A DNA stretch of 64,000 bases, taken from positions 23 through 64,022 of the forward strand of contig CAXTMX010000005.1 in NCBI GenBank assembly GCA_964245585.1, given 5' to 3'. A program made the translations under genes and the position numbers. Positions within the stretch are counted from its first letter, which is position 1, and the number at the start of each line of letters is the position of its first letter. Under the pieces are notes generated by a model. That model searched no databases, was not told the origin of the DNA, and saw only the letters and a program-made list of their open reading frames with translations. Source of the stretch: an uncultured Sphingomonadaceae bacterium. Its GTDB lineage: Bacteria > Pseudomonadota > Alphaproteobacteria > Sphingomonadales > Sphingomonadaceae. Positions 25,500 to 52,906 of the stretch are shown here, one piece after another.

Positions 25500-25503
25500 T
25501 CAT

Positions 25504-25539: not shown

Positions 25540-25563
25540 GCCAGCTGGGGCGTTACCGTCTCA

Positions 25564-28009: not shown

Positions 28010-28015
28010 AAGCGC

Positions 28016-30657: not shown

Positions 30658-30658
30658 C

Positions 30659-32604: not shown

Positions 32605-33302
32605 TCCGGCACGTGCTAGTCGCCGTTTTACTTGTGGAGAGCGCGCCCGTCCTGACTGCGTTGGCCCAGCCGCTCGACAATCGCTTACAGTCGATCACTT
32701 TCGAAGCAGATACACCCCAGCGTATCGAGACGTCGTCCGATATTATACAGACCGTTTTGTTTGAGCGCGGTGAACAAATCCGGTCGGTCCTTTTGAGCGA
32801 TCCGAGTGCCTTTTTTGTAAGCATTTCAGGCAGCGGCGATAGCCTTGTGCTCAGAGCCAACGGTCCAGGTGCCCAGTCGGTGATGACCGTAGAAACCAAC
32901 CTGCGTCAGTATCGTCTGCAACTTGTTGGGAGCGCGGGTATCAAAGGCGATAGGATCCCCCAGATCATTCGTTTTACCTACGGTGCGGCGACTGGAGACA
33001 TTCGCCGGGCTCCTGACGCGTCTCCGCCCGGGATCAGCTGGCGTCTATCCGGCGACGTGGGTCTCCGCCCGGCCAAGATCAATGACGATGGCGAGAAGAC
33101 CTATATCTCTTGGCCCGAGAAGGTGCCCATGCCGGTCGTGTTCGCTGTCGACTCGCGGCAACGTGAACAATTGGTCGACGGATATGTCCGAGCAGGATTT
33201 TACACAATCGATAGGGTTTACGAGCGACTGATCTTTCGTATCGATCGCCGGGAGGCGATGGCCAAGCGCGTTCAGGATCGCGAGGCAGTGAAGCATGATT
33301 GA
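32601..33302 (+). CDS. virB9: T4SS VirB9/TrbG
   Basis: Signal peptide, DNRL, GEQI, VETNLRQY and RP..DDGEKTYISW..P..P.VF. Confidence 0.88.
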   Translation: MIRHVLVAVLLVESAPVLTALAQPLDNRLQSITFEADTPQRIETSSDIIQTVLFERGEQIRSVLLSDPSAFFVSISGSGDSLVLRANGPGAQSVMTVETNLRQYRLQLVGSAGIKGDRIPQIIRFTYGAATGDIRRAPDASPPGISWRLSGDVGLRPAKINDDGEKTYISWPEKVPMPVVFAVDSRQREQLVDGYVRAGFYTIDRVYERLIFRIDRREAMAKRVQDREAVKHD

Positions 33303-34362: not shown

Positions 34363-35339
34363 ACGCACTGACCAAGAGCATATATCTCGACAGTTTTCTC
34401 GCACCCCTAGCGCCTTATATGGCCCGCGAGGAAATCACCGACATATACGTTAATCGGTCCGGAGAATTGTGGATCGAGTCAATCGGCGCGCAGGTGCAAC
34501 GGATTGAAGATCCCGCGCTAACGCAGGTCGCCCTTAGCCGGCTTGCTCGCCAGGTCGCCGCCATCAGCTCGCAGGGCGTAAGCCGGGAACACCCTCTGCT
34601 CGCCGCAAGTTTGCCGGATGGGTCGAGGATTCAGATCGCGCTTCCGCCAGCAACGCGCGGCGAGATAGCTTTGGCGATACGAAAGCACGTCGTGCAGCAC
34701 CTGACGCTAGACGCATATGAGGCCCAGGGAGCCTTCGCAACGTCCGATGCTGACATAAGACAAAGTGTGTCCCAATCGTCGAGCCGGGCAGATCGGCGAG
34801 AACGCTCTACCAAGGACCTTCTCCGAAGCGCGGTACGCACGCGTCGGAACATTATCATCGCAGGTGGCACCTCCACGGGAAAGACGACCTTTCTGAATGC
34901 ATTGCTCCGAGAGATCTCCCCCAAGGAGCGCTTGATCCTTATTGAAGACACCCCGGAACTCCAAATGACACATAGTAACTCTGTCGGCCTAATCGCGGCG
35001 AGGAGCCCAATTGGGGAAGCCGCAGTCAACGCCGAGGATTTGCTCATTGCTTCTTTGCGCATGCGGCCCGACCGCGTAATCCTAGGGGAGCTACGAGGGG
35101 GCGAGGCGATGACGTTTTTGCGAGCCATCAACACAGGCCATCCAGGTTCGATGACAACGATCCACGCGGATTCGCCAGAACGTGCCGTCGATCAGCTCGC
35201 GATGCTTGTCCTGCAAGGGGGAAACCGCATGTCGTGGGAGAACGTCGTGAGCTATGTTCGTCGCTCCATCGACGTGTTCGTGCAGCTGAAACGTAACGGA
35301 GGTGTCCGGTCGGTTGAGACCGTTTCCATGACCTACTGA
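34359..35339 (+). CDS. virB11: T4SS ATPase VirB11
   Basis: GGTSTGKTT, IEDTPEL, LRMRPDR and NTGHPGSMTTIHA. Confidence 0.95.
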   Translation: MNALTKSIYLDSFLAPLAPYMAREEITDIYVNRSGELWIESIGAQVQRIEDPALTQVALSRLARQVAAISSQGVSREHPLLAASLPDGSRIQIALPPATRGEIALAIRKHVVQHLTLDAYEAQGAFATSDADIRQSVSQSSSRADRRERSTKDLLRSAVRTRRNIIIAGGTSTGKTTFLNALLREISPKERLILIEDTPELQMTHSNSVGLIAARSPIGEAAVNAEDLLIASLRMRPDRVILGELRGGEAMTFLRAINTGHPGSMTTIHADSPERAVDQLAMLVLQGGNRMSWENVVSYVRRSIDVFVQLKRNGGVRSVETVSMTY

Positions 35340-35811
35340 CTTTAGCCACCCGCGATGGTGCGTGGAGTGATGATCTATCCTCGGCAACGCGAACGAACGC
35401 GAGACGTGCGCAGATGACTATGATCCGCATAAGAGAGGCCGCGCGGTGACTCGACTACCGCACCGACTATCATGCGGCCAGACGTCTTGCCGTCAGCTCG
35501 GATAGGAGCAATCAGTTGCGATATCTTTGGTGTGCGAGTCTATGCGTTCCCCACGATCGCGGGCGGCATTTCATCGTTGGCAAAAATCACATCGTTCGTC
35601 ATGCCCGCACGATTGAACGACGCATTTCAGAGGCGCTTGAAAGCCACCTTCACACCGAAACGGATGCACTTCAAAATTGTTGCGCGCGGTTACGAGTTGC
35701 AGCCGGCTATGCAATGAGATGCGACCGGGTTATGCGTCGGTGATGGGGCAACGTGTTCTGACGGGGGCGGGCATGAGACATTCAGGAAGCGCGTCCAGGG
35801 GAGAGTGGAAC

Positions 35812-38800
35812 GTGCTACGGATGCTATGGGTAGCAGTCGCCACGCTGTTGGTCTTCTTCGCAAATGCAGCCCCTGCGGAGGCCGCGCCACCTATGTGGCA
35901 AGCGTGGGCTCCCGAGTGGTACTATAACTATCTTTGGAAACTTGGCTCGACCTGGCCCCCGGTGGAGCCCGCCTTCTCAACGCCGGACGCCTCTTGTGCA
36001 AGTGCTCTAAGTTGGGAATACAACAATCAGGACAGCTCTGCGGCGACCTATACCGTCGGTCCGTGGGAAGAAGCGATATGGATCCAGTACGCGCCGAGCG
36101 GCGTGCGCGAGACAGTCGCGGGCCGTCGATGCTCAATCAACAGAGCTGATGGCACTCCTGGTGACTTGGGGTATGATGGCTGGAACGGTTTGAAACAGAT
36201 TGTTCTCATACCGTTTTGCAGCAATGGCGAGACACTGGGTATCGTTGAAGGTAGCCCAGTTTGTTCGGCTGTAGTCCCCCCTGATAGCCAAGACTGCGAG
36301 TGCGTACCTGGAGATACGCCTGTTAGCGGACCGCCTGAAGTTTCGGTAGGTAACCCCATACTGGTTGATACCGGTACTAAGACCGCAGAAGAGACCGATT
36401 ATCGGTCAGCAGACGGTTTGCTGGAGGTGAAGCGCGAGTATAAGAGCCGGCCGCGCAATCCTATTTACATGCCTTTCCCGCTTGAGATTCCTGGCTTTTC
36501 CACTCAATGGCACGGCCTGCTTCCGGGTATGTTGGATATTGAAACGATCGTCAACGGATTTGGAGAGCTAGATTACCTAGCTTTTCAGTCGTCAGATGGT
36601 TCGGTTCGCCGTTTCTATGCCAACAGCGCGACGGACTATGTCTATACGAAATCCGATCAGACGCGATTGAACGTGACGATGGTGAGCACGCCAACGATAG
36701 GGCGGCCGGATTTCTACAAGGCGCCTGCCGATACCACCAGCACCGGCGAGGTCCGACTTCAGTTCGCAAATGGAAAGTATATACTTTTCCGACGAGCTGG
36801 GGACTATGACGCAGCAAACAAGCGGCGAGTTCTTGTTCCCGTCGAGCAGGGCGAACCTGGTGGCTACAAGCGGTGGTTCGATTATCCCGACGCAGGGATT
36901 TACCCTAACCGAATAAGGGACAGCTTCGGACGCCAGCTTATCTTGACCTGGACCGAGCTCGGCTGGTCGCACAACACGGTGCGCGGAGCGCGAAAGGGGC
37001 CCAACCAGTCGACAGCGCCAGTCGGGTTCACGAAGGAGTTCGGCATTTCGGCAATCGCTTTGCCTGATGGTACGACGCTCAACTACACCTATGGGGCGAT
37101 CGACCCCTCCGGCTATCTCGGCCGACTGGAGACCATGACGCGGAAGAACGCGAGCGCGACAACTCTCTGGGGGCGGTCATACTTGCACGAGGATACCCGT
37201 TTTCCGGCGGCAATCACAGGGATCGTCGATCAGAATGGGGCCCGCCTGTCCACTTATAGTTACGACGAATATGGACGAGCCACGCTGTCCAAGCGTGCGG
37301 GTGGGGTAGGGCAATATCAAATCACTTATTCAGCCCCCAACACCGACTCCACTCCTCAAACCCGGGCCGTCACTAATCCGCTAGGTCTGACCGACACCTA
37401 CTCTTATGTCGGCTGGAATGCGGGTGGCGTGAGTCTGCAAACGAACCCTCGTCGGCTTCTCTCGATCGACGGGGCCGCCACCGCATCGGTTCCCGTCCGG
37501 TCGCGTAGCTTCGCGTACACTACACAGGGCCAGCTTAAATCGTTCACCGACGCAAAGGGGAATGTGACGAGCCAGGTGGTCGATTCGGCTAAGTTTCGCC
37601 CGAACAGCGTTACGAATGCCGGCACCGTATCGCAGAGCATAACTTGGGATCCTAATTTTGACCTTCCAGCTCAAATCCTGCTCACAGGAAAGCTCGCGAC
37701 GAGTTTCACTTACGATAGTTCGGGTCAGCTTTTGACCCTCAGCCGGGTGGACAAGACCACTGCAGGAAACGGCACGACCAGGACGACGACCTATACCTGG
37801 GGAACGGGTGGTCGCCTGATGTCGATCAATGGCCCTCGCAATCCCGCTGCCTATGGCGGGGTGGATGATCTGACGACGTTCACATATGATCCACAGGGCA
37901 ATCGGCTGACGATGACGAATGCGCTGGGCAAGGTGACTAACTATTCGGGATACGACGCCAACGGCAATCCAGGCCTCGTGACTGATCCCAACGGTATCAA
38001 GACAGCCTTCACTTACGACGGACTGGGTCGGGTGAAGACGATCACGGTCAAGCACCCTACCACCGTGGCGCTCGATGCGGTGACTACTCTTGACTATGAC
38101 GTAGAGGGCCGCGTTATCGGCTTAACCCGTCCCGCCGCCGCGAAGTTGAACTTCGACTATGACCTCGCGGGCCGGCTTCTCGCTATTCGCTCGGACGACG
38201 GTGAGCGGATCGACTACACCTATGACGGAATGAACGACGTACTGAGCGAAACGGTGAAGCGAACCAACGGCACGCAGTCGCGCGCCATCACTCGCACGTT
38301 CGACGAGCTCGGGCGAATGTTGACGCAGACGCTTGGGCCGAGTCGGACGACGACGTGGTCATACGACAAGAACGGCAATCGGACACAGGTGACGACCCCG
38401 CGCGCCAATGCCTCAACTCAAGCGTTCGATGCGCTTGATCGCTTGACGACTGTAGCGGCGCCCGCTGCCGGCACGACAACCAACGCTTACGACAGCCAAA
38501 ACAACATCGCTTCATTCACCGACGCCAAGACGTTCCAGACAACCTACACGCGCAACGGGTTTGGCGACATCATCAAGGAAGTGTCACCCGATCGAGGAGC
38601 GACGAGCTATACGTATGATGATGGCGGTGATCTTAAGACGATGACCGACGGCCGCGGCCAGGTAGTCACCTTTAACCGCGATATCCTCGGCCGAATCACG
38701 AGCAAAGTTCCGACGGGCCTTACAGCGCAGACGGTGACCTACACGTGGGATACGGGCGGACTCGCGGGCAGCTACGGGGTTGGGCGTGTTGGCAAGATCG

Positions 38801-40485
38801 TAGATGGATCGGGCACGACGACGTTCCAATACGATCATCGCGGCAACATGCTGGTGATACAGCAGGCCATTGGTACAACCTCTGCGGCGCAGCTGATTTA
38901 CGCCTACGATCTTGGCGATCGCGTGACCCAGATCACCTATCCGTCGGGTCGAATCGTCCAGTATGGCCGCGACAGCAAGGGCCGGGTGAACCTTGTGCAG
39001 ACGAAGGCGTCGGCGTCAGTCGGGACTTGGACGTCGATCGCAAGCGGGCTTACTTATGAGCCGTTCGGCGCCGTCACCTCGATCACTCTCGGCAACGGCC
39101 TGAAGGCTACGAACGACTGGGGCAACGATGGCCGACTGGCGACGCGGCGGCTGCAGCGCGTGTCCAACGGGACCAATCTGTCCCTGCTGACCTACGGCTA
39201 CGACAACGACGATAACATCATCAGCATCACAGACGGCGTCACCTCGAGCCAGAGCCAAACCTATGCCTATGACGCGGCGGGCCGGGTGAACCGCATCGAC
39301 ACCGCGAGCGGCACGTACAAGCGTACTGACTACACCTACGACGCCAACGGCAACCGTCAGCAGGAACAGCGCCGGACGCTTGCGACCGATGCGACGCCGG
39401 CGCAGACCGATGCATATAGTTATGCGACTACCTCAAACCGTCTGAGCAACGTGGCGATCCCCGCGGGCAACCGCGCGATCACGTATGATGGGCGAGGAAA
39501 CATGAAAGGTGAGACGCGTCCGAGCAGCGTCACGGTCACTCAGACCTACGACGGTTATGGCCGCCTAACCGGCTATAGCCGGACCGGCACGAGTGCATTG
39601 TCGTTCACATACAACGGTCGTGATGACAGAGTGACGATGGTGATCGGCACAGTGACGCGCCGGTTCATCTATGATCCCGACGGTCGGGTGATGGGCGAGT
39701 ATGGCAACTCGGCCACGGACGTAAAGGCTGAGTTTATCTGGCAGCTACCAGTGGTTGCCAACGATAACGACTTTGGCGGAGACGATGGACTCAATGGCTA
39801 CGCGCCGCTTGCGGTGGCGACGCCGACTACGGCCGGTGCGATACAGATTAACTGGGTGCACGGCAGCCATCTCGGAGTGCCGCTGGTGACAACGGACAGC
39901 GCCGGTAACGCGGCGACGACGCCCAACGACTACTTCGCACCCGGGTTTCCAGGCCAGAGCAAGATCCTCGCCGACCTCTACTACAATCGCTACCGCGACT
40001 ACGATCCCACTATCGGACGCTACATTCAGGCCGACCCCATAGGCCTCGATGGTGGGACAAATCTCTATGTGTATGTCGCAAATAATCCGATACGGTGGAC
40101 CGATCCCATGGGGTTGTTCATCCCGTTGGTCATACCTGCCGCAGAGGGCGCTGCGGAGGGGATCGCCGCGCTCTGTCTGCGGTTTCCTGCGCAGTGTGCC
40201 GCTACGATCAACGCTGGTGCGGCCATCGTTTCAGCGTGCATCGGCGGCGGCGAGGACAGGTGCGAAAAGCAAAAGGAAGATGATGAGTTTGAGTGTAATC
40301 AGTGGAACGTATACACCAACCATCAGGGTTACAGTCGAAGAGAGGGGTATCGTATATGCCTCAGTACAGCAGCAACTAGATACGCCGAGTGTAGATCTAG
40401 GGGAATGAATCCTGCTAACATCACCACACCCTTGTTCCTGCCAACTAGACGACGTGGCATCCCAGATCCGTCACGAGGCAGGTAG
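35812..40485 (+). CDS. Rhs/YD-repeat polymorphic toxin with Sec signal peptide, currently carrying C-terminal tip A
   Basis: GTG 35812 follows RBS GGGGAG and gives [24 protein letters not shown]|. It has a VGNPI motif, many YD repeats and the core end [46 protein letters not shown], then a Cys-rich tip. No PAAR motif seen. Confidence 0.95.
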
Positions 40486-40489
40486 CAGG

Positions 40490-40768
40490 ATGGAAGATTT
40501 GTATATCTCACGTCACATGTTGTTCCTTAAAGGCGAGGAATATCATAAAACCGTGATTTATATACAAAAGCCTATAGAGCGAACAGATGGCGGTCATACT
40601 GCACGAGTGGTTTTTACTGAAGTTAGTAAGTATGATGCAAATATAAAGGGAGCAGATAGTTTGAACGCTATTGAATGTGCGATATCGTACATCAACAGCG
40701 TTTGTAAGGATAGTACAGAGCCTAGATTCTACTGGGAAGAAGGTTATCCTTTCATTGGATCTAATTGA
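40490..40768 (+). CDS. Putative immunity protein for Rhs tip A (DUF6968-like GxDSxxA pattern)
   Basis: AT-rich 92-aa ORF starting 4 nt after the toxin stop; IKGADSLNAIECA. Family assignment is tentative. Confidence 0.75.
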   Translation: MEDLYISRHMLFLKGEEYHKTVIYIQKPIERTDGGHTARVVFTEVSKYDANIKGADSLNAIECAISYINSVCKDSTEPRFYWEEGYPFIGSN

Positions 40769-41389
40769 CGACGCCTTGTCGGCTTAACATGGGATCCTGC
40801 TCATCTTCTCGTTGATCCGGGCACCTGCTGCCGTTGTGCAAGCTACTGCCGATCTGGTGACGCTCTTTTTTGCACAGTAGCCGACTTGGAGGGCGGTCAG
40901 GAGCGTTTGCAAGATAAAGGCAGCGCCTCCTGGCGGCTGCTAAGTGGTTGTCTGCACGTCGGAATATAGCGAGGCATGCGTCACGGCGACGGAGGCTCCC
41001 GGCGTGATGTTGGAGGTGCCGCGCTGGCAACCAGTTGAATCGGCGCGGCAATAGCAGGAGGCAGCCACGAGACTCTCCTGTCGGGGCTCCTGCCGGATCG
41101 CCGATGACGATCGCCAGGCCAGGAGCGCGGCGGAGGCAGGGCGACGGAGCGGCTGGAATATGCCCACACCCTATGCGGCGCGCCGCGAGGCGTAAGTGTC
41201 TGGCCTGCAATGCCAAAACCCGTAAACAAGGCTAGGCCACGATCGCATTGCAACGCAAGACACCGCTAACCCATTGATCTTGTGAGGAGCGGCGGTTCGC
41301 TGCCACCCTGCTGACAGAGCTGCTGAACGGGTCCGCCACGGGGAGCGGCACGGCCGTTCCCCATCGTCGTTCCGTGCTGATCCTCGGGC

Positions 41390-41770
41390 CTACCGGATGA
41401 TGCTCTCGATCTGGCGCTTGGTGAGGAACGCGTCGAGCAGGGTCTTGACGACCTGCTTGTCGGCGTCGGGGAGGTGCTCGACGGCCTGGAACTGGCGGAG
41501 CAGCTCGCGGTCGCTGACGCGGGCGGCGGCGGCTTCGTCGCTGGCGCCATCGAGAAGATAATCGCTGGTGGTGTCGAGCGCGTCGGCGAGGCGCCTGAGG
41601 GTATCGCCGCCGGGGCGCGACGTGCCGCGCTCGAACCGGCCGATGTGGGTGTAGTGGAGGCCGGCCTTCTGCCCAAGCTGGGTCTGGGAGAGGTCGCGCG
41701 CCTTGCGCAGCGTGCGCAGCCGCTGCGAGAACCCCTCGCCCACATCGTTCTCCAGCACCCTTGCCGCCAT
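41390..41770 (-). CDS. XRE-family HTH regulator
   Basis: FSQRLRTLRKARDLSQTQLGQKAGLHYTHIGRFERG..P..TLRRLADAL; divergent from the primase gene. Confidence 0.92.
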   Translation of the reverse strand: MAARVLENDVGEGFSQRLRTLRKARDLSQTQLGQKAGLHYTHIGRFERGTSRPGGDTLRRLADALDTTSDYLLDGASDEAAAARVSDRELLRQFQAVEHLPDADKQVVKTLLDAFLTKRQIESIIR

Positions 41771-41920
41771 CACCATCTCCAATGGAGTGATGCTGCCGGA
41801 TGTGGAGGGGGAATGCCATGCCTGCATGCTCGATAGCCTGTCCTGACTGCTTGACCGAATACAGCGCAGCGGCTAGCGGATCAAGCATCCTTGCTGCATG
41901 AAAAATATCTGGGGACAGCG

Positions 41921-44899
41921 ATGGCGCGCATGGCGGACGCGGAGATCGAGCGGCTGAAGAACGAGGTGAGCCTGGTGCGCCTCGTCGAATCGGCGGGCGT
42001 GGCGCTCCAGCGGCGCGGTCAGGAGATGGTGGGCCGCTGCCCGTTCCATGCCGACGACACGCCGTCGCTGTCGGTCAACGCGGCGAAGAACCTGTTCCGC
42101 TGCTTCGGCTGCGACGCGGGCGGCGGGCCGATCGACTGGGTGATGAAGCGCGAGGGGGTGAGCTTCCGCCACGCGGTCGAGCTGCTGCGCGACGGCGCCG
42201 CGCTGGAGCCACCCGCGTCGTCGCCAGCACGATCCACCGTGCGGCGGCTTGCCCCGCCGATGAGCCTCGATGGCGACGACCGGGCGCTGCTCGATCAGGT
42301 GGTGGGCTATTATCACGAGACGCTGAAGCGGTCGCCCGAGGCGCTGGCCTATCTGAAGGCGCGCGGCCTGGTCCACCCCGAGCTGATCGAGCGGTTCCGG
42401 CTCGGCTATGCGGACCGCACGCTGGGCCTCAGGCTGCCCGAGAAGAACCGCAAGGCTGGCGCGGAGGTGCGCGGGCGGCTGGAGCGGATCGGGCTCTACC
42501 GGGCGAGCGGCCACGAGCACTTCCGGGGCTCGCTGGTGGTGCCGGTGATCGACGCGCACGGCCATGTCGTCGAGGTCTATGGGCGCAAGACCAGGGACGA
42601 TCTGCGCCCCGGAACGCCCATGCACCTCTACCTTCCTGGGCCGCATCGCGGCGTGTGGAACCTCGACGGGATCGCCGGATCGGGGGGCGAGGTGATCCTG
42701 TGCGAGGCGCTGATCGACGCCATGACCTTCTGGGTAGCCGGCTATCGCAACGTCACCGCCGCCTATGGCACGAGCGGCTTTACCGACGACCATCTGGCGG
42801 CGTTCCGCGCGCACGATATCGCCCGCGTGCTGGTCGCCTACGACCGCGACGCCGCCGGCGACAAGGGCGCCGCTGCGGTCGCCGAGCAGCTCGCGCCGCA
42901 TGGGATCGGGGTCTATCGCGTGAACTTCCCGAAGGGGATGGATGCGAACGGCTACGCGCTGAACGTGACTCCGCCCGCCAAGAGTCTGGGGGCGTTGCTG
43001 CGCGCCGCCGAGTGGATGGCGGGCACCGAATCCCGTCCGCGCGCGGTGCCGTTCGACGACGAATCCGAGCCCCATATCGTCGTCGAAACCCTTCCTCTCT
43101 CAGCCGCCGAGCCGCTGTCCGAGCCCAGCCACGCCGGCCCGATCGCGCCGTCGCCACCGCCTCCCGTAGCGGCCGAGATCGGCGAGCGGGAGGTGGTGAT
43201 CCAGCTCGGCGACCGCACCTGGCGCGCGCGCGGGCTGGCCCGCAACGCGTCGCCGGAGGCGATGAAGATCAACCTCATGGTGCGGCGCGGAGAGGCGTTC
43301 CACGTCGACGGACTGGACCTGCTCAGCGCCAAGAACCGCGCCGCGTTCGTGGCGGAAGCCGCGCTCGAGCTGGGCCTGCCGCCGGAGGCGGTGAAGCGCG
43401 ATATCGGGCAGGTGCTCTTGAAGCTCGAGTCGGTGCAGGAGGCGATGCTGCGCGAGACAGCGCCGACCCCCGGCGTCGTGATCAGCGCCGGCGACGAGGC
43501 CGCGGCGATGGCCTGGCTCCGCTCCCCCGACCTGCTCGACCGGATCGCCGCCGACATCGCCGCTATGGGCGTGATCGGCGAGGCCGAGAACGCGCTCACC
43601 GTCTATCTGGCGGCGCTCAGCCGCAAGCTCGATCGGCCGCTCGCGGTGCTGATCCAGTCGACCAGCGCCGCCGGCAAGAGCGCGCTGATGGACGCGGTGC
43701 TCGACCTGGTGCCGGAGGAGGAGCGGGTCGCCTACTCGGCGATGACCGGGCAGAGCCTGTTCTATCTGGGCGAGGCGGACCTCCGCCACAAGGCGCTCGC
43801 CATCGCCGAGGAGGAGGGCGCGCGCCATGCGTCCTATGCGCTGAAGCTGCTTCAGAGCCAGGGCGCGATCACCATCGCGTCGACGGGCAAGGACCCGGCG
43901 ACGGGCAAGCTGGTGACGCAGGACTATCGGGTCGAGGGACCGGTCGCGCTGATGCTGACCACGACCGCGATCGACCTCGACGAGGAGCTGAGCAACCGCT
44001 GCCTGGTGCTGACGATCGACGAGAGTCGCGAGCAGACCCGCGCGATCCATGCCCGCCAGCGTTACGAGGAGACGCTCGCCGGCCTCGCCGAGCGCGAGAA
44101 CGGCGCCGCGATCCGCGCGCTGCATCACAATGCGCAGCGGCTGATCAGGCCGGTGAAGGTGGTCAACCCGTTCGCGGAAGCCCTGACGTTCCTCGACGAC
44201 AAGACCCGCACGCGCCGCGACCACCGCAAATATCTTGGGCTGATCCGCGCCGTCGCGCTGCTCCACCAGCATCAGCGGCCGACCCGCGAGCTGACCCGTC
44301 CCGGCATGGCGCCGCTCGCCTATATCGAGGCGACGCTGGACGATATCGCGGCCGCCAACCGGCTCGCCCATGCGGTGCTCGGCACCACGCTCGACGAGCT
44401 GCCGCCGCAGACCCGGACGCTGCTCCACTTGGTCCGCGATCACGTCGCCGCGCGTGCTACGGCCGAGGGCGTCCAGCCCCGCGACGTGCGGTTCACCCGC
44501 CGCGAGGTCCGGGAGGCGACAGGCTGGGGCGACACCCAGCTCAAGCTCCACCTGCACCGCCTGGAGGAGCTTGAATATCTGCTGGTGCGCCGCGACGGCA
44601 CCCGGTTCGTCTACGAGCTGGCCTGGGGCGGCGAAGGCGAGGCGGGCGCGCCGTTCGTGATGGGGCTGATCAACGTCGAGCGGCTGCGCCAACATCATTA
44701 TGACCGCGAACGGTCGGGGGTGGCGGCCGATCGGCCGCCCTCTGGTCGGGCCGAGATCGGGGTCCGGTCGGTGGGCAGTCACGCCCCCGAATCGCCAAGA
44801 ACCGCAGGGATCGTGCGGCTTCCCGCGCACATCGCCGCACCGCGCCCTGAATCCGTATCCCAGGTCGCTGGCGAACGCCGGTCATACGCGAACGGCTGA
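41921..44899 (+). CDS. DnaG-type primase (CHC2 Zn finger + Toprim) fused to a P-loop NTPase domain
   Basis: CPFHADDTPS...CFGC, LCEALIDA, YDRD.AG, Walker A-like QSTSAAGKS and Walker B-like LAIAEEEG. Confidence 0.9.
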   Translation: MARMADAEIERLKNEVSLVRLVESAGVALQRRGQEMVGRCPFHADDTPSLSVNAAKNLFRCFGCDAGGGPIDWVMKREGVSFRHAVELLRDGAALEPPASSPARSTVRRLAPPMSLDGDDRALLDQVVGYYHETLKRSPEALAYLKARGLVHPELIERFRLGYADRTLGLRLPEKNRKAGAEVRGRLERIGLYRASGHEHFRGSLVVPVIDAHGHVVEVYGRKTRDDLRPGTPMHLYLPGPHRGVWNLDGIAGSGGEVILCEALIDAMTFWVAGYRNVTAAYGTSGFTDDHLAAFRAHDIARVLVAYDRDAAGDKGAAAVAEQLAPHGIGVYRVNFPKGMDANGYALNVTPPAKSLGALLRAAEWMAGTESRPRAVPFDDESEPHIVVETLPLSAAEPLSEPSHAGPIAPSPPPPVAAEIGEREVVIQLGDRTWRARGLARNASPEAMKINLMVRRGEAFHVDGLDLLSAKNRAAFVAEAALELGLPPEAVKRDIGQVLLKLESVQEAMLRETAPTPGVVISAGDEAAAMAWLRSPDLLDRIAADIAAMGVIGEAENALTVYLAALSRKLDRPLAVLIQSTSAAGKSALMDAVLDLVPEEERVAYSAMTGQSLFYLGEADLRHKALAIAEEEGARHASYALKLLQSQGAITIASTGKDPATGKLVTQDYRVEGPVALMLTTTAIDLDEELSNRCLVLTIDESREQTRAIHARQRYEETLAGLAERENGAAIRALHHNAQRLIRPVKVVNPFAEALTFLDDKTRTRRDHRKYLGLIRAVALLHQHQRPTRELTRPGMAPLAYIEATLDDIAAANRLAHAVLGTTLDELPPQTRTLLHLVRDHVAARATAEGVQPRDVRFTRREVREATGWGDTQLKLHLHRLEELEYLLVRRDGTRFVYELAWGGEGEAGAPFVMGLINVERLRQHHYDRERSGVAADRPPSGRAEIGVRSVGSHAPESPRTAGIVRLPAHIAAPRPESVSQVAGERRSYANG

Positions 44900-45915
44900 T
44901 GCCGCGTCGTGCGCTGCCGCCGCTGCCGGGACGCCATGATCCCGACAGCCTCGCCTCGCACATGGAGCGGTTCCTGTCGGCGCTGGCGGTGCTCAACTAC
45001 TCGCCCGCGACGATCGAGGACCGACGCTACTGCCTCGCCACGTTCATCCTGTGGTGCGGCGAACGTGGCCTGGAGCGCCCGACGCAGGTGACGAAGCCGA
45101 TCCTGGAGCGGTTCCAGCGCCACCTCTACTATCACCGCAAGCCCAACGGCGACCCGTTGACGTTCCGCACGCAGGCGGCGCGCATGGTCCCGCTGCGCGC
45201 CTGGTTCAGATGGCTGGCGCGCGAGAATCACATCCTGTCCAACCCGGCCTCCGAGCTGGAGCTGCCCCGCCCCGAGCGTCGCCTGCCGGCGGTGGTGCTG
45301 ACGGCGGAGGAGGCCGAGGCGGTGATGGCCGTTCCCGACGTGGGCGCGCCGCTGGGGCTGCGCGACCGCGCCATGCTGGAGCTGCTCTACGCCACCGCGA
45401 TCCGACGCAGCGAGCTGATCGCGCTCAAGCTGTTCGACGTGGACTATGCCCGTGCCGCGCTCATCGTCCGGCAGGGCAAGGGCAACAAGGACCGGGTGGT
45501 GCCGCTGGGCGAGCGGGCGAAGGCCTGGCTTACCGCCTATCGCGACCGCGTGCGCCCCGGTCTGGTCGCAGGCCGCGATCCGGTCACGCTGTTCCTGAGC
45601 CGTGACGGGCGCCCGCTCGAACCCAAGCGCCTGTCCGAGAAGGTGCGCGGCTATGTGGAGGCCGCCGGCATCGGCAAGCCGGGCTCCTGCCACCTGCTGC
45701 GCCACACCGCCGCCACGCTGATGCTGGAGGGCGGCGCCGACATCCGGTTCATCCAGGCTCTGCTCGGCCACGAGAGCCTGGAGACGACGCAGATCTACAC
45801 CCGCGTCTCCATCACCAAGCTGGCCGAGATCCACGCCGCCACGCACCCCGGCGCCCGCCTGGTGCGCGACCGCGCCCTGCTCGATACAGCACTTGCCCTC
45901 GACGGCGAGGACTGA
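44899..45915 (+). CDS. XerC/XerD-like tyrosine recombinase
   Basis: RDRAMLELLYATAIRRSEL, GKGNKDR, HLLRH, LLGH and TTQIY. TGATG coupling to the primase gene. Confidence 0.95.
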   Translation: MPRRALPPLPGRHDPDSLASHMERFLSALAVLNYSPATIEDRRYCLATFILWCGERGLERPTQVTKPILERFQRHLYYHRKPNGDPLTFRTQAARMVPLRAWFRWLARENHILSNPASELELPRPERRLPAVVLTAEEAEAVMAVPDVGAPLGLRDRAMLELLYATAIRRSELIALKLFDVDYARAALIVRQGKGNKDRVVPLGERAKAWLTAYRDRVRPGLVAGRDPVTLFLSRDGRPLEPKRLSEKVRGYVEAAGIGKPGSCHLLRHTAATLMLEGGADIRFIQALLGHESLETTQIYTRVSITKLAEIHAATHPGARLVRDRALLDTALALDGED

Positions 45916-46109
45916 CCTTCCTCTCTCAGCCGCTTGCCCGCGCGCGCCAGCGCGCGCATGATGGCACTTGATCTTTGACAGCCGCGTCGCGGCACCGAAA
46001 ACCGCCTCAAGGCGATCCGGCGCTCGCCCGAACCGCTTCTCCCGCGTGTGCGCGTAAGCCGCTGCACCGCCTCGGGAAAAGCGCATCACTATGGCCGGAC
46101 CACATCAAG

Positions 46110-46134
46110 CGGATCAGTTGTCGCAAATAATCCG
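46110..46134. other. attP-like junction with imperfect inverted repeat
   Basis: CGGATCAGT-TGTCGCA-AATAATCCG. The arms match 7/9 as an inverted repeat, or 9/11 with a 3-nt spacer. The junction joins the element's right end to its left end. Confidence 0.7.
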
Positions 46135-46530
46135 ATACGGTGGACCGATCCCATGGGGTTGTTCATCCCGTTGGTCATACCTGCCGCAGAGGGCGCTGCG
46201 GAGGGGATCGCCGCGCTCTGTCTGCGGTTTCCTGCGCAGTGTGCCGCTACGATCAACGCTGGTGCGGCCATCGTTTCAGCGTGCATCGGCGGCGGCGAGG
46301 ACAGGTGCGAAAAGCAAAAGGAAGATGATGAGTTTGAGTGTAATCAGTGGAACGTATACACCAACCATCAGGGTTACAGTCGAAGAGAGGGGTATCGTAT
46401 ATGCCTCAGTACAGCAGCAACTAGATACGCCGAGTGTAGATCTAGGGGAATGAATCCTGCTAACATCACCACACCCTTGTTCCTGCCAACTAGACGACGT
46501 GGCATCCCAGATCCGTCACGAGGCAGGTAG
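46119..46530 (+). pseudogene. Orphan copy of Rhs tip A (no core)
   Basis: [14 protein letters not shown] + tip A, preceded by element DNA instead of the Rhs core. Confidence 0.85.
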
Positions 46531-46534
46531 CAGG

Positions 46535-46813
46535 ATGGAAGATTTGTATATCTCACGTCACATGTTGTTCCTTAAAGGCGAGGAATATCATAAAACCGTG
46601 ATTTATATACAAAAGCCTATAGAGCGAACAGATGGCGGTCATACTGCACGAGTGGTTTTTACTGAAGTTAGTAAGTATGATGCAAATATAAAGGGAGCAG
46701 ATAGTTTGAACGCTATTGAATGTGCGATATCGTACATCAACAGCGTTTGTAAGGATAGTACAGAGCCTAGATTCTACTGGGAAGAAGGTTATCCTTTCAT
46801 TGGATCTAATTGA
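46535..46813 (+). CDS. Putative immunity protein for tip A, copy 2
   Basis: Same translation as 40490-40768. Confidence 0.75.
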   Translation: MEDLYISRHMLFLKGEEYHKTVIYIQKPIERTDGGHTARVVFTEVSKYDANIKGADSLNAIECAISYINSVCKDSTEPRFYWEEGYPFIGSN

Positions 46814-47434
46814 CGACGCCTTGTCGGCTTAACATGGGATCCTGCTCATCTTCTCGTTGATCCGGGCACCTGCTGCCGTTGTGCAAGCTACTGCCGATCT
46901 GGTGACGCTCTTTTTTGCACAGTAGCCGACTTGGAGGGCGGTCAGGAGCGTTTGCAAGATAAAGGCAGCGCCTCCTGGCGGCTGCTAAGTGGTTGTCTGC
47001 ACGTCGGAATATAGCGAGGCATGCGTCACGGCGACGGAGGCTCCCGGCGTGATGTTGGAGGTGCCGCGCTGGCAACCAGTTGAATCGGCGCGGCAATAGC
47101 AGGAGGCAGCCACGAGACTCTCCTGTCGGGGCTCCTGCCGGATCGCCGATGACGATCGCCAGGCCAGGAGCGCGGCGGAGGCAGGGCGACGGAGCGGCTG
47201 GAATATGCCCACACCCTATGCGGCGCGCCGCGAGGCGTAAGTGTCTGGCCTGCAATGCCAAAACCCGTAAACAAGGCTAGGCCACGATCGCATTGCAACG
47301 CAAGACACCGCTAACCCATTGATCTTGTGAGGAGCGGCGGTTCGCTGCCACCCTGCTGACAGAGCTGCTGAACGGGTCCGCCACGGGGAGCGGCACGGCC
47401 GTTCCCCATCGTCGTTCCGTGCTGATCCTCGGGC

Positions 47435-47815
47435 CTACCGGATGATGCTCTCGATCTGGCGCTTGGTGAGGAACGCGTCGAGCAGGGTCTTGACGACCTG
47501 CTTGTCGGCGTCGGGGAGGTGCTCGACGGCCTGGAACTGGCGGAGCAGCTCGCGGTCGCTGACGCGGGCGGCGGCGGCTTCGTCGCTGGCGCCATCGAGA
47601 AGATAATCGCTGGTGGTGTCGAGCGCGTCGGCGAGGCGCCTGAGGGTATCGCCGCCGGGGCGCGACGTGCCGCGCTCGAACCGGCCGATGTGGGTGTAGT
47701 GGAGGCCGGCCTTCTGCCCAAGCTGGGTCTGGGAGAGGTCGCGCGCCTTGCGCAGCGTGCGCAGCCGCTGCGAGAACCCCTCGCCCACATCGTTCTCCAG
47801 CACCCTTGCCGCCAT
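47435..47815 (-). CDS. XRE-family HTH regulator, copy 2
   Basis: Same translation as copy 1. Confidence 0.92.
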   Translation of the reverse strand: MAARVLENDVGEGFSQRLRTLRKARDLSQTQLGQKAGLHYTHIGRFERGTSRPGGDTLRRLADALDTTSDYLLDGASDEAAAARVSDRELLRQFQAVEHLPDADKQVVKTLLDAFLTKRQIESIIR

Positions 47816-47965
47816 CACCATCTCCAATGGAGTGATGCTGCCGGATGTGGAGGGGGAATGCCATGCCTGCATGCTCGATAGCCTGTCCTGACTGCTTGAC
47901 CGAATACAGCGCAGCGGCTAGCGGATCAAGCATCCTTGCTGCATGAAAAATATCTGGGGACAGCG

Positions 47966-50944
47966 ATGGCGCGCATGGCGGACGCGGAGATCGAGCGGCT
48001 GAAGAACGAGGTGAGCCTGGTGCGCCTCGTCGAATCGGCGGGCGTGGCGCTCCAGCGGCGCGGTCAGGAGATGGTGGGCCGCTGCCCGTTCCATGCCGAC
48101 GACACGCCGTCGCTGTCGGTCAACGCGGCGAAGAACCTGTTCCGCTGCTTCGGCTGCGACGCGGGCGGCGGGCCGATCGACTGGGTGATGAAGCGCGAGG
48201 GGGTGAGCTTCCGCCACGCGGTCGAGCTGCTGCGCGACGGCGCCGCGCTGGAGCCACCCGCGTCGTCGCCAGCACGATCCACCGTGCGGCGGCTTGCCCC
48301 GCCGATGAGCCTCGATGGCGACGACCGGGCGCTGCTCGATCAGGTGGTGGGCTATTATCACGAGACGCTGAAGCGGTCGCCCGAGGCGCTGGCCTATCTG
48401 AAGGCGCGCGGCCTGGTCCACCCCGAGCTGATCGAGCGGTTCCGGCTCGGCTATGCGGACCGCACGCTGGGCCTCAGGCTGCCCGAGAAGAACCGCAAGG
48501 CTGGCGCGGAGGTGCGCGGGCGGCTGGAGCGGATCGGGCTCTACCGGGCGAGCGGCCACGAGCACTTCCGGGGCTCGCTGGTGGTGCCGGTGATCGACGC
48601 GCACGGCCATGTCGTCGAGGTCTATGGGCGCAAGACCAGGGACGATCTGCGCCCCGGAACGCCCATGCACCTCTACCTTCCTGGGCCGCATCGCGGCGTG
48701 TGGAACCTCGACGGGATCGCCGGATCGGGGGGCGAGGTGATCCTGTGCGAGGCGCTGATCGACGCCATGACCTTCTGGGTAGCCGGCTATCGCAACGTCA
48801 CCGCCGCCTATGGCACGAGCGGCTTTACCGACGACCATCTGGCGGCGTTCCGCGCGCACGATATCGCCCGCGTGCTGGTCGCCTACGACCGCGACGCCGC
48901 CGGCGACAAGGGCGCCGCTGCGGTCGCCGAGCAGCTCGCGCCGCATGGGATCGGGGTCTATCGCGTGAACTTCCCGAAGGGGATGGATGCGAACGGCTAC
49001 GCGCTGAACGTGACTCCGCCCGCCAAGAGTCTGGGGGCGTTGCTGCGCGCCGCCGAGTGGATGGCGGGCACCGAATCCCGTCCGCGCGCGGTGCCGTTCG
49101 ACGACGAATCCGAGCCCCATATCGTCGTCGAAACCCTTCCTCTCTCAGCCGCCGAGCCGCTGTCCGAGCCCAGCCACGCCGGCCCGATCGCGCCGTCGCC
49201 ACCGCCTCCCGTAGCGGCCGAGATCGGCGAGCGGGAGGTGGTGATCCAGCTCGGCGACCGCACCTGGCGCGCGCGCGGGCTGGCCCGCAACGCGTCGCCG
49301 GAGGCGATGAAGATCAACCTCATGGTGCGGCGCGGAGAGGCGTTCCACGTCGACGGACTGGACCTGCTCAGCGCCAAGAACCGCGCCGCGTTCGTGGCGG
49401 AAGCCGCGCTCGAGCTGGGCCTGCCGCCGGAGGCGGTGAAGCGCGATATCGGGCAGGTGCTCTTGAAGCTCGAGTCGGTGCAGGAGGCGATGCTGCGCGA
49501 GACAGCGCCGACCCCCGGCGTCGTGATCAGCGCCGGCGACGAGGCCGCGGCGATGGCCTGGCTCCGCTCCCCCGACCTGCTCGACCGGATCGCCGCCGAC
49601 ATCGCCGCTATGGGCGTGATCGGCGAGGCCGAGAACGCGCTCACCGTCTATCTGGCGGCGCTCAGCCGCAAGCTCGATCGGCCGCTCGCGGTGCTGATCC
49701 AGTCGACCAGCGCCGCCGGCAAGAGCGCGCTGATGGACGCGGTGCTCGACCTGGTGCCGGAGGAGGAGCGGGTCGCCTACTCGGCGATGACCGGGCAGAG
49801 CCTGTTCTATCTGGGCGAGGCGGACCTCCGCCACAAGGCGCTCGCCATCGCCGAGGAGGAGGGCGCGCGCCATGCGTCCTATGCGCTGAAGCTGCTTCAG
49901 AGCCAGGGCGCGATCACCATCGCGTCGACGGGCAAGGACCCGGCGACGGGCAAGCTGGTGACGCAGGACTATCGGGTCGAGGGACCGGTCGCGCTGATGC
50001 TGACCACGACCGCGATCGACCTCGACGAGGAGCTGAGCAACCGCTGCCTGGTGCTGACGATCGACGAGAGTCGCGAGCAGACCCGCGCGATCCATGCCCG
50101 CCAGCGTTACGAGGAGACGCTCGCCGGCCTCGCCGAGCGCGAGAACGGCGCCGCGATCCGCGCGCTGCATCACAATGCGCAGCGGCTGATCAGGCCGGTG
50201 AAGGTGGTCAACCCGTTCGCGGAAGCCCTGACGTTCCTCGACGACAAGACCCGCACGCGCCGCGACCACCGCAAATATCTTGGGCTGATCCGCGCCGTCG
50301 CGCTGCTCCACCAGCATCAGCGGCCGACCCGCGAGCTGACCCGTCCCGGCATGGCGCCGCTCGCCTATATCGAGGCGACGCTGGACGATATCGCGGCCGC
50401 CAACCGGCTCGCCCATGCGGTGCTCGGCACCACGCTCGACGAGCTGCCGCCGCAGACCCGGACGCTGCTCCACTTGGTCCGCGATCACGTCGCCGCGCGT
50501 GCTACGGCCGAGGGCGTCCAGCCCCGCGACGTGCGGTTCACCCGCCGCGAGGTCCGGGAGGCGACAGGCTGGGGCGACACCCAGCTCAAGCTCCACCTGC
50601 ACCGCCTGGAGGAGCTTGAATATCTGCTGGTGCGCCGCGACGGCACCCGGTTCGTCTACGAGCTGGCCTGGGGCGGCGAAGGCGAGGCGGGCGCGCCGTT
50701 CGTGATGGGGCTGATCAACGTCGAGCGGCTGCGCCAACATCATTATGACCGCGAACGGTCGGGGGTGGCGGCCGATCGGCCGCCCTCTGGTCGGGCCGAG
50801 ATCGGGGTCCGGTCGGTGGGCAGTCACGCCCCCGAATCGCCAAGAACCGCAGGGATCGTGCGGCTTCCCGCGCACATCGCCGCACCGCGCCCTGAATCCG
50901 TATCCCAGGTCGCTGGCGAACGCCGGTCATACGCGAACGGCTGA
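47966..50944 (+). CDS. Primase/P-loop fusion, copy 2
   Basis: Same translation as copy 1. Confidence 0.9.
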   Translation: MARMADAEIERLKNEVSLVRLVESAGVALQRRGQEMVGRCPFHADDTPSLSVNAAKNLFRCFGCDAGGGPIDWVMKREGVSFRHAVELLRDGAALEPPASSPARSTVRRLAPPMSLDGDDRALLDQVVGYYHETLKRSPEALAYLKARGLVHPELIERFRLGYADRTLGLRLPEKNRKAGAEVRGRLERIGLYRASGHEHFRGSLVVPVIDAHGHVVEVYGRKTRDDLRPGTPMHLYLPGPHRGVWNLDGIAGSGGEVILCEALIDAMTFWVAGYRNVTAAYGTSGFTDDHLAAFRAHDIARVLVAYDRDAAGDKGAAAVAEQLAPHGIGVYRVNFPKGMDANGYALNVTPPAKSLGALLRAAEWMAGTESRPRAVPFDDESEPHIVVETLPLSAAEPLSEPSHAGPIAPSPPPPVAAEIGEREVVIQLGDRTWRARGLARNASPEAMKINLMVRRGEAFHVDGLDLLSAKNRAAFVAEAALELGLPPEAVKRDIGQVLLKLESVQEAMLRETAPTPGVVISAGDEAAAMAWLRSPDLLDRIAADIAAMGVIGEAENALTVYLAALSRKLDRPLAVLIQSTSAAGKSALMDAVLDLVPEEERVAYSAMTGQSLFYLGEADLRHKALAIAEEEGARHASYALKLLQSQGAITIASTGKDPATGKLVTQDYRVEGPVALMLTTTAIDLDEELSNRCLVLTIDESREQTRAIHARQRYEETLAGLAERENGAAIRALHHNAQRLIRPVKVVNPFAEALTFLDDKTRTRRDHRKYLGLIRAVALLHQHQRPTRELTRPGMAPLAYIEATLDDIAAANRLAHAVLGTTLDELPPQTRTLLHLVRDHVAARATAEGVQPRDVRFTRREVREATGWGDTQLKLHLHRLEELEYLLVRRDGTRFVYELAWGGEGEAGAPFVMGLINVERLRQHHYDRERSGVAADRPPSGRAEIGVRSVGSHAPESPRTAGIVRLPAHIAAPRPESVSQVAGERRSYANG

Positions 50945-51960
50945 TGCCGCGTCGTGCGCTGCCGCCGCTGCCGGGACGCCATGATCCCGACAGCCTCGCC
51001 TCGCACATGGAGCGGTTCCTGTCGGCGCTGGCGGTGCTCAACTACTCGCCCGCGACGATCGAGGACCGACGCTACTGCCTCGCCACGTTCATCCTGTGGT
51101 GCGGCGAACGTGGCCTGGAGCGCCCGACGCAGGTGACGAAGCCGATCCTGGAGCGGTTCCAGCGCCACCTCTACTATCACCGCAAGCCCAACGGCGACCC
51201 GTTGACGTTCCGCACGCAGGCGGCGCGCATGGTCCCGCTGCGCGCCTGGTTCAGATGGCTGGCGCGCGAGAATCACATCCTGTCCAACCCGGCCTCCGAG
51301 CTGGAGCTGCCCCGCCCCGAGCGTCGCCTGCCGGCGGTGGTGCTGACGGCGGAGGAGGCCGAGGCGGTGATGGCCGTTCCCGACGTGGGCGCGCCGCTGG
51401 GGCTGCGCGACCGCGCCATGCTGGAGCTGCTCTACGCCACCGCGATCCGACGCAGCGAGCTGATCGCGCTCAAGCTGTTCGACGTGGACTATGCCCGTGC
51501 CGCGCTCATCGTCCGGCAGGGCAAGGGCAACAAGGACCGGGTGGTGCCGCTGGGCGAGCGGGCGAAGGCCTGGCTTACCGCCTATCGCGACCGCGTGCGC
51601 CCCGGTCTGGTCGCAGGCCGCGATCCGGTCACGCTGTTCCTGAGCCGTGACGGGCGCCCGCTCGAACCCAAGCGCCTGTCCGAGAAGGTGCGCGGCTATG
51701 TGGAGGCCGCCGGCATCGGCAAGCCGGGCTCCTGCCACCTGCTGCGCCACACCGCCGCCACGCTGATGCTGGAGGGCGGCGCCGACATCCGGTTCATCCA
51801 GGCTCTGCTCGGCCACGAGAGCCTGGAGACGACGCAGATCTACACCCGCGTCTCCATCACCAAGCTGGCCGAGATCCACGCCGCCACGCACCCCGGCGCC
51901 CGCCTGGTGCGCGACCGCGCCCTGCTCGATACAGCACTTGCCCTCGACGGCGAGGACTGA
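50944..51960 (+). CDS. XerC/XerD-like tyrosine recombinase, copy 2
   Basis: Same translation as copy 1. Confidence 0.95.
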   Translation: MPRRALPPLPGRHDPDSLASHMERFLSALAVLNYSPATIEDRRYCLATFILWCGERGLERPTQVTKPILERFQRHLYYHRKPNGDPLTFRTQAARMVPLRAWFRWLARENHILSNPASELELPRPERRLPAVVLTAEEAEAVMAVPDVGAPLGLRDRAMLELLYATAIRRSELIALKLFDVDYARAALIVRQGKGNKDRVVPLGERAKAWLTAYRDRVRPGLVAGRDPVTLFLSRDGRPLEPKRLSEKVRGYVEAAGIGKPGSCHLLRHTAATLMLEGGADIRFIQALLGHESLETTQIYTRVSITKLAEIHAATHPGARLVRDRALLDTALALDGED

Positions 51961-52163
51961 CCTTCCTCTCTCAGCCGCTTGCCCGCGCGCGCCAGCGCGC
52001 GCATGATGGCACTTGATCTTTGACAGCCGCGTCGCGGCACCGAAAACCGCCTCAAGGCGATCCGGCGCTCGCCCGAACCGCTTCTCCCGCGTGTGCGCGT
52101 AAGCCGCTGCACCGCCTCGGGAAAAGCGCATCACTATGGCCGGACCACATCAAGCGGATCAGT

Positions 52164-52554
52164 TGTTGGGAATAACCCAATACGATTTACTGACCCGGCG
52201 GGGTTGCAGTCGCGGATTGTGATACCTGTCCCTTGGTGGTATCCGCCGGTTCCTCCGCTTTTGAACCAAGGAAACAAGCCTCGCAATAACAGCGCGGACG
52301 CTAATAAGGCGTGGCGTGATTACAAAGCGCGCTATCAGGAGCCGCCACCTCCCAACCTGGACCCATGTGAACAACTGGCCTGGGAGATTTGGAAAGAAAA
52401 GCGTCTGATAGATGATCGGTTGGCTTGGGACGCGAGATATCTACCGGGCAGGCACGATATTGCCATTGACCAGTCTCGCAAGCGCATTAAAAATCTAGAG
52501 GATGAAATGAAAGTACTTGGGTGTACGTGTCCACCGCATGACTCAAAGTATTGA
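52164..52554 (+). pseudogene. Displaced/orphan Rhs C-terminal tip B
   Basis: VGNNPIRFTDPAGL followed by a different tip (..YKARYQEPPPPNLDPCEQLAW..WDARYLPGRH..). No Rhs core lies directly upstream. Confidence 0.88.
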
Positions 52555-52906
52555 CGCTATGCTTGAAGAAAATTCTATACCTACGCCTTTAACCTTTGAG
52601 CAAATTGCAAGAATGCAGGCCCGTTACAGTCATTTACCATCTTACGAGCCAGGTAGAGCATTTGGCGTCTGTGATCCGATGACATACGTTAACGCAGATG
52701 GGGATGCCCTGATCCATATCGCTGCTACAGCTGGAGATACGGAAACTGTGGAGCTGTTACTCAAAGCTGGTATCGATCCGAATATAAAGGGGGACATGAG
52801 TTATACGCCGCTCCATTATGCAACAGATGCTAAGCATTCGGGTATTGTCGAATTGCTTGTCCGCTATGGCGCTATCAAAACAAAGACTGAGTTTGATGAT
52901 ATGTAA
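52538..52906 (+). CDS. Ankyrin-repeat protein, putative immunity for tip B
   Basis: GDALIHIAATAGDTETVELLLKAGIDPNIKGDMSYTPLHYA...IVELLVRYGA; overlaps the tip B stop. Confidence 0.85.
   Translation: MTQSIDAMLEENSIPTPLTFEQIARMQARYSHLPSYEPGRAFGVCDPMTYVNADGDALIHIAATAGDTETVELLLKAGIDPNIKGDMSYTPLHYATDAKHSGIVELLVRYGAIKTKTEFDDM

Follow-up and report, generated by a model that had tools for sequence, protein, structure and literature searches.

The duplicated unit at the end of an Rhs gene

The window, that is, the whole stretch of 64,000 nucleotides analysed here (contig CAXTMX010000005.1 of an uncultured Sphingomonadaceae bacterium), contains an Rhs gene followed by two directly adjacent copies of a 6,045-bp unit. 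The unit is treated here as a candidate integrative element which would exchange the C-terminal toxin domains (tips) of Rhs proteins. The locus is composed of the following features:

35677..40073, + strand: host Rhs core, with YD repeats and the Rhs-associated core end (TIGR03696)
40065..40089, + strand: junction J1, attL-like, made of host core, TGTCGCA AATAATCCG and tip A (junction reading)
40074..40485, + strand: tip A of copy 1, a Cys-rich C-terminal domain fused in frame to the host core
40490..40768, + strand: predicted immunity gene for tip A, 92 residues, weak DUF6968 match
41390..41827, - strand: XRE/RstR-like repressor of copy 1, divergent from the primase (NF041951, 83.7 bits, cut-off 80)
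41891..44899, + strand: primase-helicase of copy 1, with CHC2 zinc finger and Toprim
44899..45915, + strand: tyrosine recombinase of copy 1, NF002331/PRK01287 family
45990..46118, + strand: conserved right end of the element (P arm), terminating in CATCAAGCGGATCAGT (comparison with relatives)
46103..46134, + strand: junction J2, attP-like, element end joined to tip A (junction reading)
46119..52163, + strand: second 6,045-bp copy (headless tip A, immunity gene, XRE regulator, primase-helicase, recombinase), identical to copy 1
52148..52179, + strand: junction J3, attR-like, made of element end, TGTTGGG AATAACCCA and tip B (junction reading)
52164..52554, + strand: tip B, headless, the sequence behind J3
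52538..52906, + strand: ankyrin-repeat gene after tip B

Direct comparison of 40074-46118 with 46119-52163 gave 0 mismatches over 6,045 bp. J1 reads ..CTCTATGTGTA|TGTCGCAAATAATCCG, with the cut placed after the second base of the Tyr codon in Y-V-x-N-N-P, J2 reads ..GCGGATCAGT|TGTCGCAAATAATCCG and J3 reads ..GCGGATCAGT|TGTTGGGAATAACCCA. J2 holds an imperfect inverted repeat, CGGATCAGT-7 bp-AATAATCCG, which together with its 7-bp centre may represent the site of the recombinase. The reading frame of the core to the left of J1 is also that of tip B to the right of J3, and their joined reading is ..NLYVYVGNNPIRFTDPAG. A previous reading of the DNA made without database searches (the sequence-only reading) had described the 6,045-bp unit, the three junctions and the intact Rhs with tip B on joining J1-left to J3-right, all of which hold base for base. 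Its statement that the homology at the crossover amounts to 3 bp stands for the unbroken identity, the 60 bp upstream of J1 and J3 being unrelated, and is refined downstream, where the first 43 bp of tips A and B agree at about 30 positions. Of the seven bases directly after the cut, three differ between J1 and J3.

The gene content given in the sequence-only reading (tip A, an immunity-like gene, XRE regulator, primase and recombinase) was also found. The C-terminus of the primase-helicase has a P-loop, with Walker A AAGKS at 593 and Walker B EEEG at 638. The recombinase scores 431.8 bits against NF002331 (curated cut-off 371), which makes it a member of that family, and retains all six catalytic residues (R169, K194, H265, R268, H291 and Y300). 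Although labelled XerC, it belongs to a separate clade; it lies below the equivalog cut-offs of XerC and XerD (TIGR02224, 233 against 335; TIGR02225, 228 against 330) and of the integron integrase IntI (TIGR02249, 118 against 265). The closest recombinases are from Sphingomonas records, which makes a sphingomonad a probable host. The G+C content is 49% in the tips and their partner genes, 70% in the backbone of the unit and 59% in the Rhs core.

The 6,045-bp unit is likely an integrative element that exchanges Rhs toxin tips by site-specific recombination, because it sits exactly at the joint of core and tip and its relatives do likewise in Rhs and CdiA genes. Among the characteristics of a tyrosine-recombinase element, the unit has intact catalytic residues, and the E. 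coli homologues show attL and attR bounds with a matching empty site.

Tip A and its partner resemble a toxin and its immunity protein. Homologues of tip A end other Rhs proteins (13 matches), and the tip A/partner pair is also located on an element-free Rhs of another genome (G033; 39% and 35% identity). A word search found no homologue of the partner. The predicted complex of tip A and partner scored 0.75 (best control 0.03), the runs agreed in 100% of the contacts, and the pLDDT of the partner was at least 83; the mark used is reached by 116/157 solved pairs and 2/215 mismatched pairs. This supports the prediction that tip A binds the product of its partner gene. Tip B is likely the displaced former tip of the host Rhs, and a homologue of it (69%) is fused to an Rhs core elsewhere. 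Its structure model consists of three helices (pTM 0.60). The ankyrin-repeat gene is, judging from its position, likely the immunity gene for tip B. The layout is that of Rhs toxin-immunity loci, with a variable tip after PxxxxDPxG and then a small partner gene, and by their position both tips would be toxic. At 53110-53796, after the ankyrin gene, there are two small low-GC open reading frames (ORFs) without family matches, possibly further orphan immunity genes.

The tandem itself could be an artefact, with a single chromosomal copy and a second one produced by the assembler when it unrolled a circle that had been excised and was part of the sample; this is a possibility that we take seriously and yet rate as rather doubtful. 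It agrees with the zero differences over 6,045 bp in an assembly of 140 contigs (83% complete, 2.65 Mb) and with the existence of circular contigs of a relative, whereas true tandems occur in complete replicons (ZYB39, with copies 1 base apart, and L158) and in L012. The mechanism would be unchanged, because J2 would then come from the circle. In a check of the tandem at read level, none of the sequencing runs contained the strain (the best shared 0.17 of the words of the stretch), and contigs from four runs matched the backbones of relatives only and were not counted as support. Within the 2.65-Mb assembly there is no further copy of the unit and no other Rhs-end site like it.

Relatives of the unit and their targets

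Relatives were collected by scans as 25 genome loci and 40 metagenome loci, which together with plasmid and further genome loci gave 86 recombinase matches, partial and duplicate ones included. Among the 55 family recombinases followed by at least 1.5 kb of sequence, an Rhs NP..DPxG end is located within 1.5 kb downstream in 35, as compared with none of 112 control windows at 28 ordinary XerC/D genes. In detail, the motif lies within 2.5 kb of 49 matches, of which 38 (34 distinct) are cut at the same base as in the window and 11 further upstream. The 34 distinct junctions, the two of the window included, all follow a conserved element end similar to CGTCAAGCGGATCAGT. The linkage of homologous units to Rhs ends, expected by the sequence-only reading, is thus borne out with base-exact junctions.

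Several relatives are arranged in tandems or stacks. Identical tandem copies were found in L012 and L017 and a further tandem or stack in L124, and in L011 two backbones with 99.9% identity lie between three tips that differ from each other; tandems or stacks also occur in complete isolate replicons (L085, L147, L158 and L162). Displaced tips have decayed in several loci, for instance L003 and L078. In L003 (positions 11223 and 15343) a headless tip is broken by an insertion sequence, and an Rhs gene 4 kb downstream shares a 43-bp near-identical junction. The family is rare, being above the cut-off in 2/401 genomes of the window's class and giving strong matches in 5/400 genomes of another class.

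More distant homologues, with identities of 46-62%, lie behind Rhs genes in Ralstonia, Janthinobacterium and E. coli; in Pseudomonas, Paraburkholderia, Enterobacter, Salmonella and E. coli the preceding genes are CdiA/FHA-like. These elements end next to QTDPIG, DPIG, LYxY, GLEGG, LDYYY, VENN, GAK, QTAIG or WVHN codons. FHA/CdiA-like targets include WVHN (L129 and L132), which we take to be a Hint-type motif, GAK (L084) and QTAIG (L085). The targets of the family, comprising CdiA, FHA-like and Hint-domain toxins besides Rhs, are consequently wider than the sequence-only reading supposed. In L081/L082 the element ends abut an unassigned VAPDG motif, and distant members (L160 and L161) lie behind a large M23-peptidase gene on Leptospira plasmids and an invasin-domain gene in Providencia.

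In a quick-method tree of 52 rows, the 46 family recombinases fall on one side, apart from six XerC/D controls (support 100). The target motif follows the clade, since 12 labels need 11 changes, the minimum, on this tree; the labels were assigned by the analyst and kin share them, so that the result indicates clustering only.

In two E. coli loci (L162 and L163) the element is placed at the ansP-vgr-rhs locus, cut at DPIG, with SymE and ISEc1 inside it, and its recombinase matches 56/5,426 genomes, 52 of them at 90% or more. Many units carry addiction-type toxin-antitoxin genes (RelE, SymE, VbhA), SymE being present in enterobacterial members, while no SymE match was found in the unit of the window.

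Filled and empty alleles, circles and scars

The insertion of related elements can be followed in E. coli through pairs of filled and empty alleles. In cdiA of strain C10 the VENN codons are the site of a 7,782-bp unit, which has the 13-bp repeat TGTTGAGAATAAC on its flanks. Strain 1303 lacks the unit at this locus; the adjoining 300 bp on either side show 0 mismatches, and to the right the identity is 99.7% over 10.5 kb. Two copies of the C10 unit (2 x 7,782 bp, 1 base apart) are placed in another cdiA locus of strain ZYB39, and the second locus of C10 is the empty form of the latter, again with 0 mismatches. The E. coli insertions have repeats of 13-15 bp only. The displaced tip of C10 was matched in 45 genomes; among the 40 matches listed it ends an annotated cdiA in 26 and is an orphan in 7, and the matches always start at the junction. 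The displaced tip of ZYB39 ends an annotated cdiA in 4 genomes, and the tip of the E. coli element itself occurs in 6/5,426. In the relative G001, the orthologous Rhs has another tip and no element.

A circular form may be represented by the metagenome contig L123, the one contig with terminal repeats among 25 whole contigs tested. Its 100-bp terminal repeat closes a circle of 7,571 bp, which shows 0 mismatches to the integrated copy of L014 between attL and attR. The circle junction that the sequence-only reading had proposed to look for thus exists as sequence, and the contig represents either an excised circle or a tandem that was collapsed; both require att recombination. Two PLSDB circles (NZ_CP055112 and NZ_CP072857) that contain element genes and Rhs tips only were not counted as attP circles, because NZ_CP055112 is colinear with the stretch that separates two copies of the primase gene on E. 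coli chromosomes.

These alleles bear on the alternative that the tips are exchanged at the conserved core end through homology or microhomology, as in the circle model already published, with the primase-recombinase module as a passenger. Homologous exchange has been proposed or shown for such genes (PMC2935791 and PMC3967940), the 43 bp behind the cut agree between tips A and B at about 30 positions, the same loci include orphans whose homology to the core is long (L086, L087 and L162), and the two PLSDB circles are not demonstrably att-bounded. On the contrary, there is no homology upstream of the cut, the same boundary base recurs in 34 distinct junctions abutting the conserved element end, the E. 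coli insertions show short repeats alone, and the cut position tracks the recombinase clade. This alternative is regarded as very improbable, and site-specific recombination is preferred.

Remnants of the element were found without its recombinase. The locus L078 (G018:C637) consists of the orthologous Rhs core, a tip and an immunity-like gene, followed by some 165 bp of the element's end and by a dead tip; a search of this genome, which is 90% complete, found no recombinase of the family. Arrays of E. coli, including the element-free loci of 1303 and CEC15, show similar end scars before headless tips. A scar of the size of that in G018 is present in L152 and L153, and a more diverged one in L149. 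WWGT, the tetramer of the element end, precedes 24/26 distinct headless VENN starts and 0/11 core-type starts (background 1.7%); the count refers to ten enterobacterial loci reached via the element, so that the sample is non-random, and 6/26 starts adjoin an intact element. The J3 core of the window, TGTTGGGAATAAC, differs by one base from that of VENN in E. coli, TGTTGAGAATAAC. At L167:9001, the tip of the E. coli element lies at the junction of a headless orphan, where C10 and 1303 have another tip. This suggests, from the sequence, that orphan starts may be usable as target sites.

Taken jointly, these loci may reflect an integron-like machine by which the recombinase family loads polymorphic toxins in general; the VENN codons of cdiA and the Y-V-x-N-N-P codons of rhs would be the sites, cassettes (each a tip, an immunity gene and about 150-165 bp of element end) would be moved in trans, and many headless orphans of genomes lacking the element would be its footprints. 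We advance this extension tentatively, at somewhat short of an even chance.

The Rhs frame of the window including tip A extends over 35677-40485 (1,602 codons), with a signal-peptide-like stretch at its N-terminus (judged by eye) and no detected PAAR domain. No link to a type VI secretion system was seen around it. Upstream is the left part of a region resembling integrative and conjugative elements (ICEs):

25425..35339, + strand: tRNA-Val, phage-type integrase (25713-26750) and VirB-like genes of a type IV secretion system

The VirB names in this region are presumed ones, given from the translations. The orthologous Rhs of the relatives G001 and G018 adjoins the same VirB genes. The ICE-like region continues at 54030-64000 with two LuxR-family paralogues (54030 and 55326) and genes resembling TraF peptidase, lytic transglycosylase, ArdC and ParB. 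The same genome has another, distantly Rhs-like gene (G000:C2:83768-85270), which lacks the element.

Tip exchange and its place among known systems

The proposed mechanism starts with a circular form, which the recombinase would likely insert at the conserved codons just before the Rhs toxin domain. Tip A would then be in frame on the host carrier, and tip B would remain headless behind the element together with its likely immunity gene. Excision through attL x attR would make the circle again and restore the old toxin, and the primase-helicase would likely copy the circle. Because attL is an intact core-tip site, new circles could re-insert there, producing tandems as well as stacks in which the tips differ. 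Mismatches among the seven bases after the cut are likely tolerated when strands are exchanged. The element could acquire new tips if it inserted at an orphan site downstream and was then excised from the core site. Transfer likely rides on host ICEs, plasmids or phage, because the unit lacks genes for a relaxase or capsid. A carrier would acquire another weapon while its former immunity is retained, which would favour the spread of the element. On this view the exchange would be independent of RecA, dependent on the recombinase and beneficial to the selfish spread of the unit.

The seven bases after the cut are identical on the left and right in three of eight alphaproteobacterial pairs (L006, L010 and L012). 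The left and right junctions are identical over 12-13 bp in L014 and in E. coli; we infer the position of the true overlap. The integrase of CTnDOT tolerates mismatches. Where mismatches occur after the cut, they suggest either a similar tolerance or later rearrangement.

Several observations weigh against tip exchange as proposed here. The seven bases differ in the window and in L011, L020, L078 and L124, unlike a strict lambda-type overlap. No Rhs motif lies within 1.5 kb of 20/55 recombinases, some of which have other toxin targets, and no target could be assigned to L081/L082, L083, L095, L096, L139, L140, L144, L145, L160 and L161. The loci are related to one another. No Rhs core was found upstream in L003, and at L018:12165-12740 the element ends are followed by fragments of the recombinase gene itself and no tip, perhaps through off-target or self-insertion. 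Neither tip matches Pfam or toxin families, the model of tip B has no match in the PDB, and a promoter scan before the displaced immunity gene gave nothing above chance. The circular contig could also be a collapsed tandem, and homologous exchange operates too, as is shown by orphans of the same arrays whose homology to the core is long. Of the empty alleles that the sequence-only reading had asked after, clean ones exist for homologous elements in E. coli cdiA; the core-tip B allele of the window's own strain was not found in 61 relatives or 301 genomes of the order.

An ordinary site-specific parasite would target the motif for its conservation only, the tip patching the gene without competitive gain. 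This would accord with the lack of a known activity for tip A or B, the decayed displaced tips of L003 and L078, the addiction-type RelE, SymE and VbhA, which would suffice for persistence, and the rarity of the family (2/401 and 5/400 sampled genomes). A patch, however, would copy the end of the host gene, whereas the elements carry unrelated tips with a partner gene whose product is predicted to bind, and the motifs adopted by the clades, in each resolved case, directly precede a toxin domain. We consider such a parasite unlikely and keep to an element that would arm its host.

It has long been asked how Rhs and CdiA gain new tips and still retain the old one. The question can now be tested by a plasmid assay, because the family supplies a candidate enzyme, defined sites, circles and alleles, both filled and empty, from complete genomes of E. 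coli. Tip exchange by the unit would explain thousands of genes named 'site-specific recombinase XerC' beside toxin loci; family-like proteins number 5,023 at E <= 1e-60, some ordinary Xer proteins possibly included. If true, it adds a mobile element whose cargo borrows the weapon of its host and offers recombinases naturally retargeted to several coding motifs.

The literature search, which covered sources other than subscription papers and supplements, found no description of the element; there was none in the relevant portions of PMC3150448, 10.1101/2025.05.08.652813, PMC10539506, PMC8125069, PMC3967940, PMC11278526, PMC4028081 and 10.64898/2026.09.30.755834. Site-specific tip exchange is thus likely, as judged from the sequences, a route to toxin diversity for which no description was found.

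The unit was tried as XerC/D, integron integrase, rAID, SE element, ICE or integrative and mobilizable element (IME), and phage satellite, and was assigned to none of these classes. Its scanned ORFs contain no relaxase or mating genes, which ICEs and IMEs have. The PHROGs scan gave primase, integrase and regulator only, with no packaging or capsid-redirecting genes; no phage record matched the recombinase at 1e-55, viral contigs gave 2 partial loci in one search and none in another, and Rfam had no match in 35000-54500. SE elements are likewise non-conjugative and integrative with a circular intermediate, but they need intA, tfp, intB and srap, whereas the unit has a single recombinase together with a primase-helicase (tfp and srap were not looked for with profiles).

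Tyrosine recombinases beside arrays of conflict genes are common to the unit, integrons and rAID. XerC/D lie beside polyimmunity loci in the account of Zhang 2012 (PMC3482391), and rAID arrays, as outlined in PMC12247911, hold immunity genes only, behind a recombinase. In contrast, the toxin tip and immunity gene of the unit are fused to the carrier, and the recombinase moves with its cargo. The SymE-cHTH-Prim-Hel neighbourhoods of Kawano 2007 (PMC1891008), which adjoin haemagglutinin and RHS genes, share the primase-helicase and the Cro/cI regulator with the unit; the portion of that paper concerned with them mentions no recombinase, att site or toxin exchange, and the unit of the window has no SymE match.

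Islands of lambda-type tyrosine integrases, which also replace the end of their target gene, have the same attL/attP/attR layout, direct repeat, tandem accretion and intact target, whereas the unit brings a different functional domain in place of a copy of the host end and often shows mismatches in the overlap. In shufflons (Rci/pilV) and the invertons of phage tail fibres, a site-specific recombinase similarly changes the C-terminus of one protein; they invert resident segments, whereas the unit would insert mobile, probably replicating DNA in direct orientation.

A further likeness is in outcome. The displacement of Rhs and CdiA C-termini has been attributed to homologous recombination (Jackson 2009, PMC2935791), in a model which, in the part concerned, needs a circular intermediate of unknown origin and knows no integrase with Rhs. 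Duplication and recombination are invoked in the corresponding passages of Poole 2011 (PMC3150448) and Koskiniemi 2014 (PMC3967940), and the account recurs in that of Hagan 2023. The attribution cited by the sequence-only reading is therefore the published one, as far as these passages go. In both cases a new tip is placed on the core, the old tip and its immunity gene are shunted downstream and a circle is proposed, whereas the unit has its own recombinase and is cut at a fixed position, with identity over 3-15 bp.

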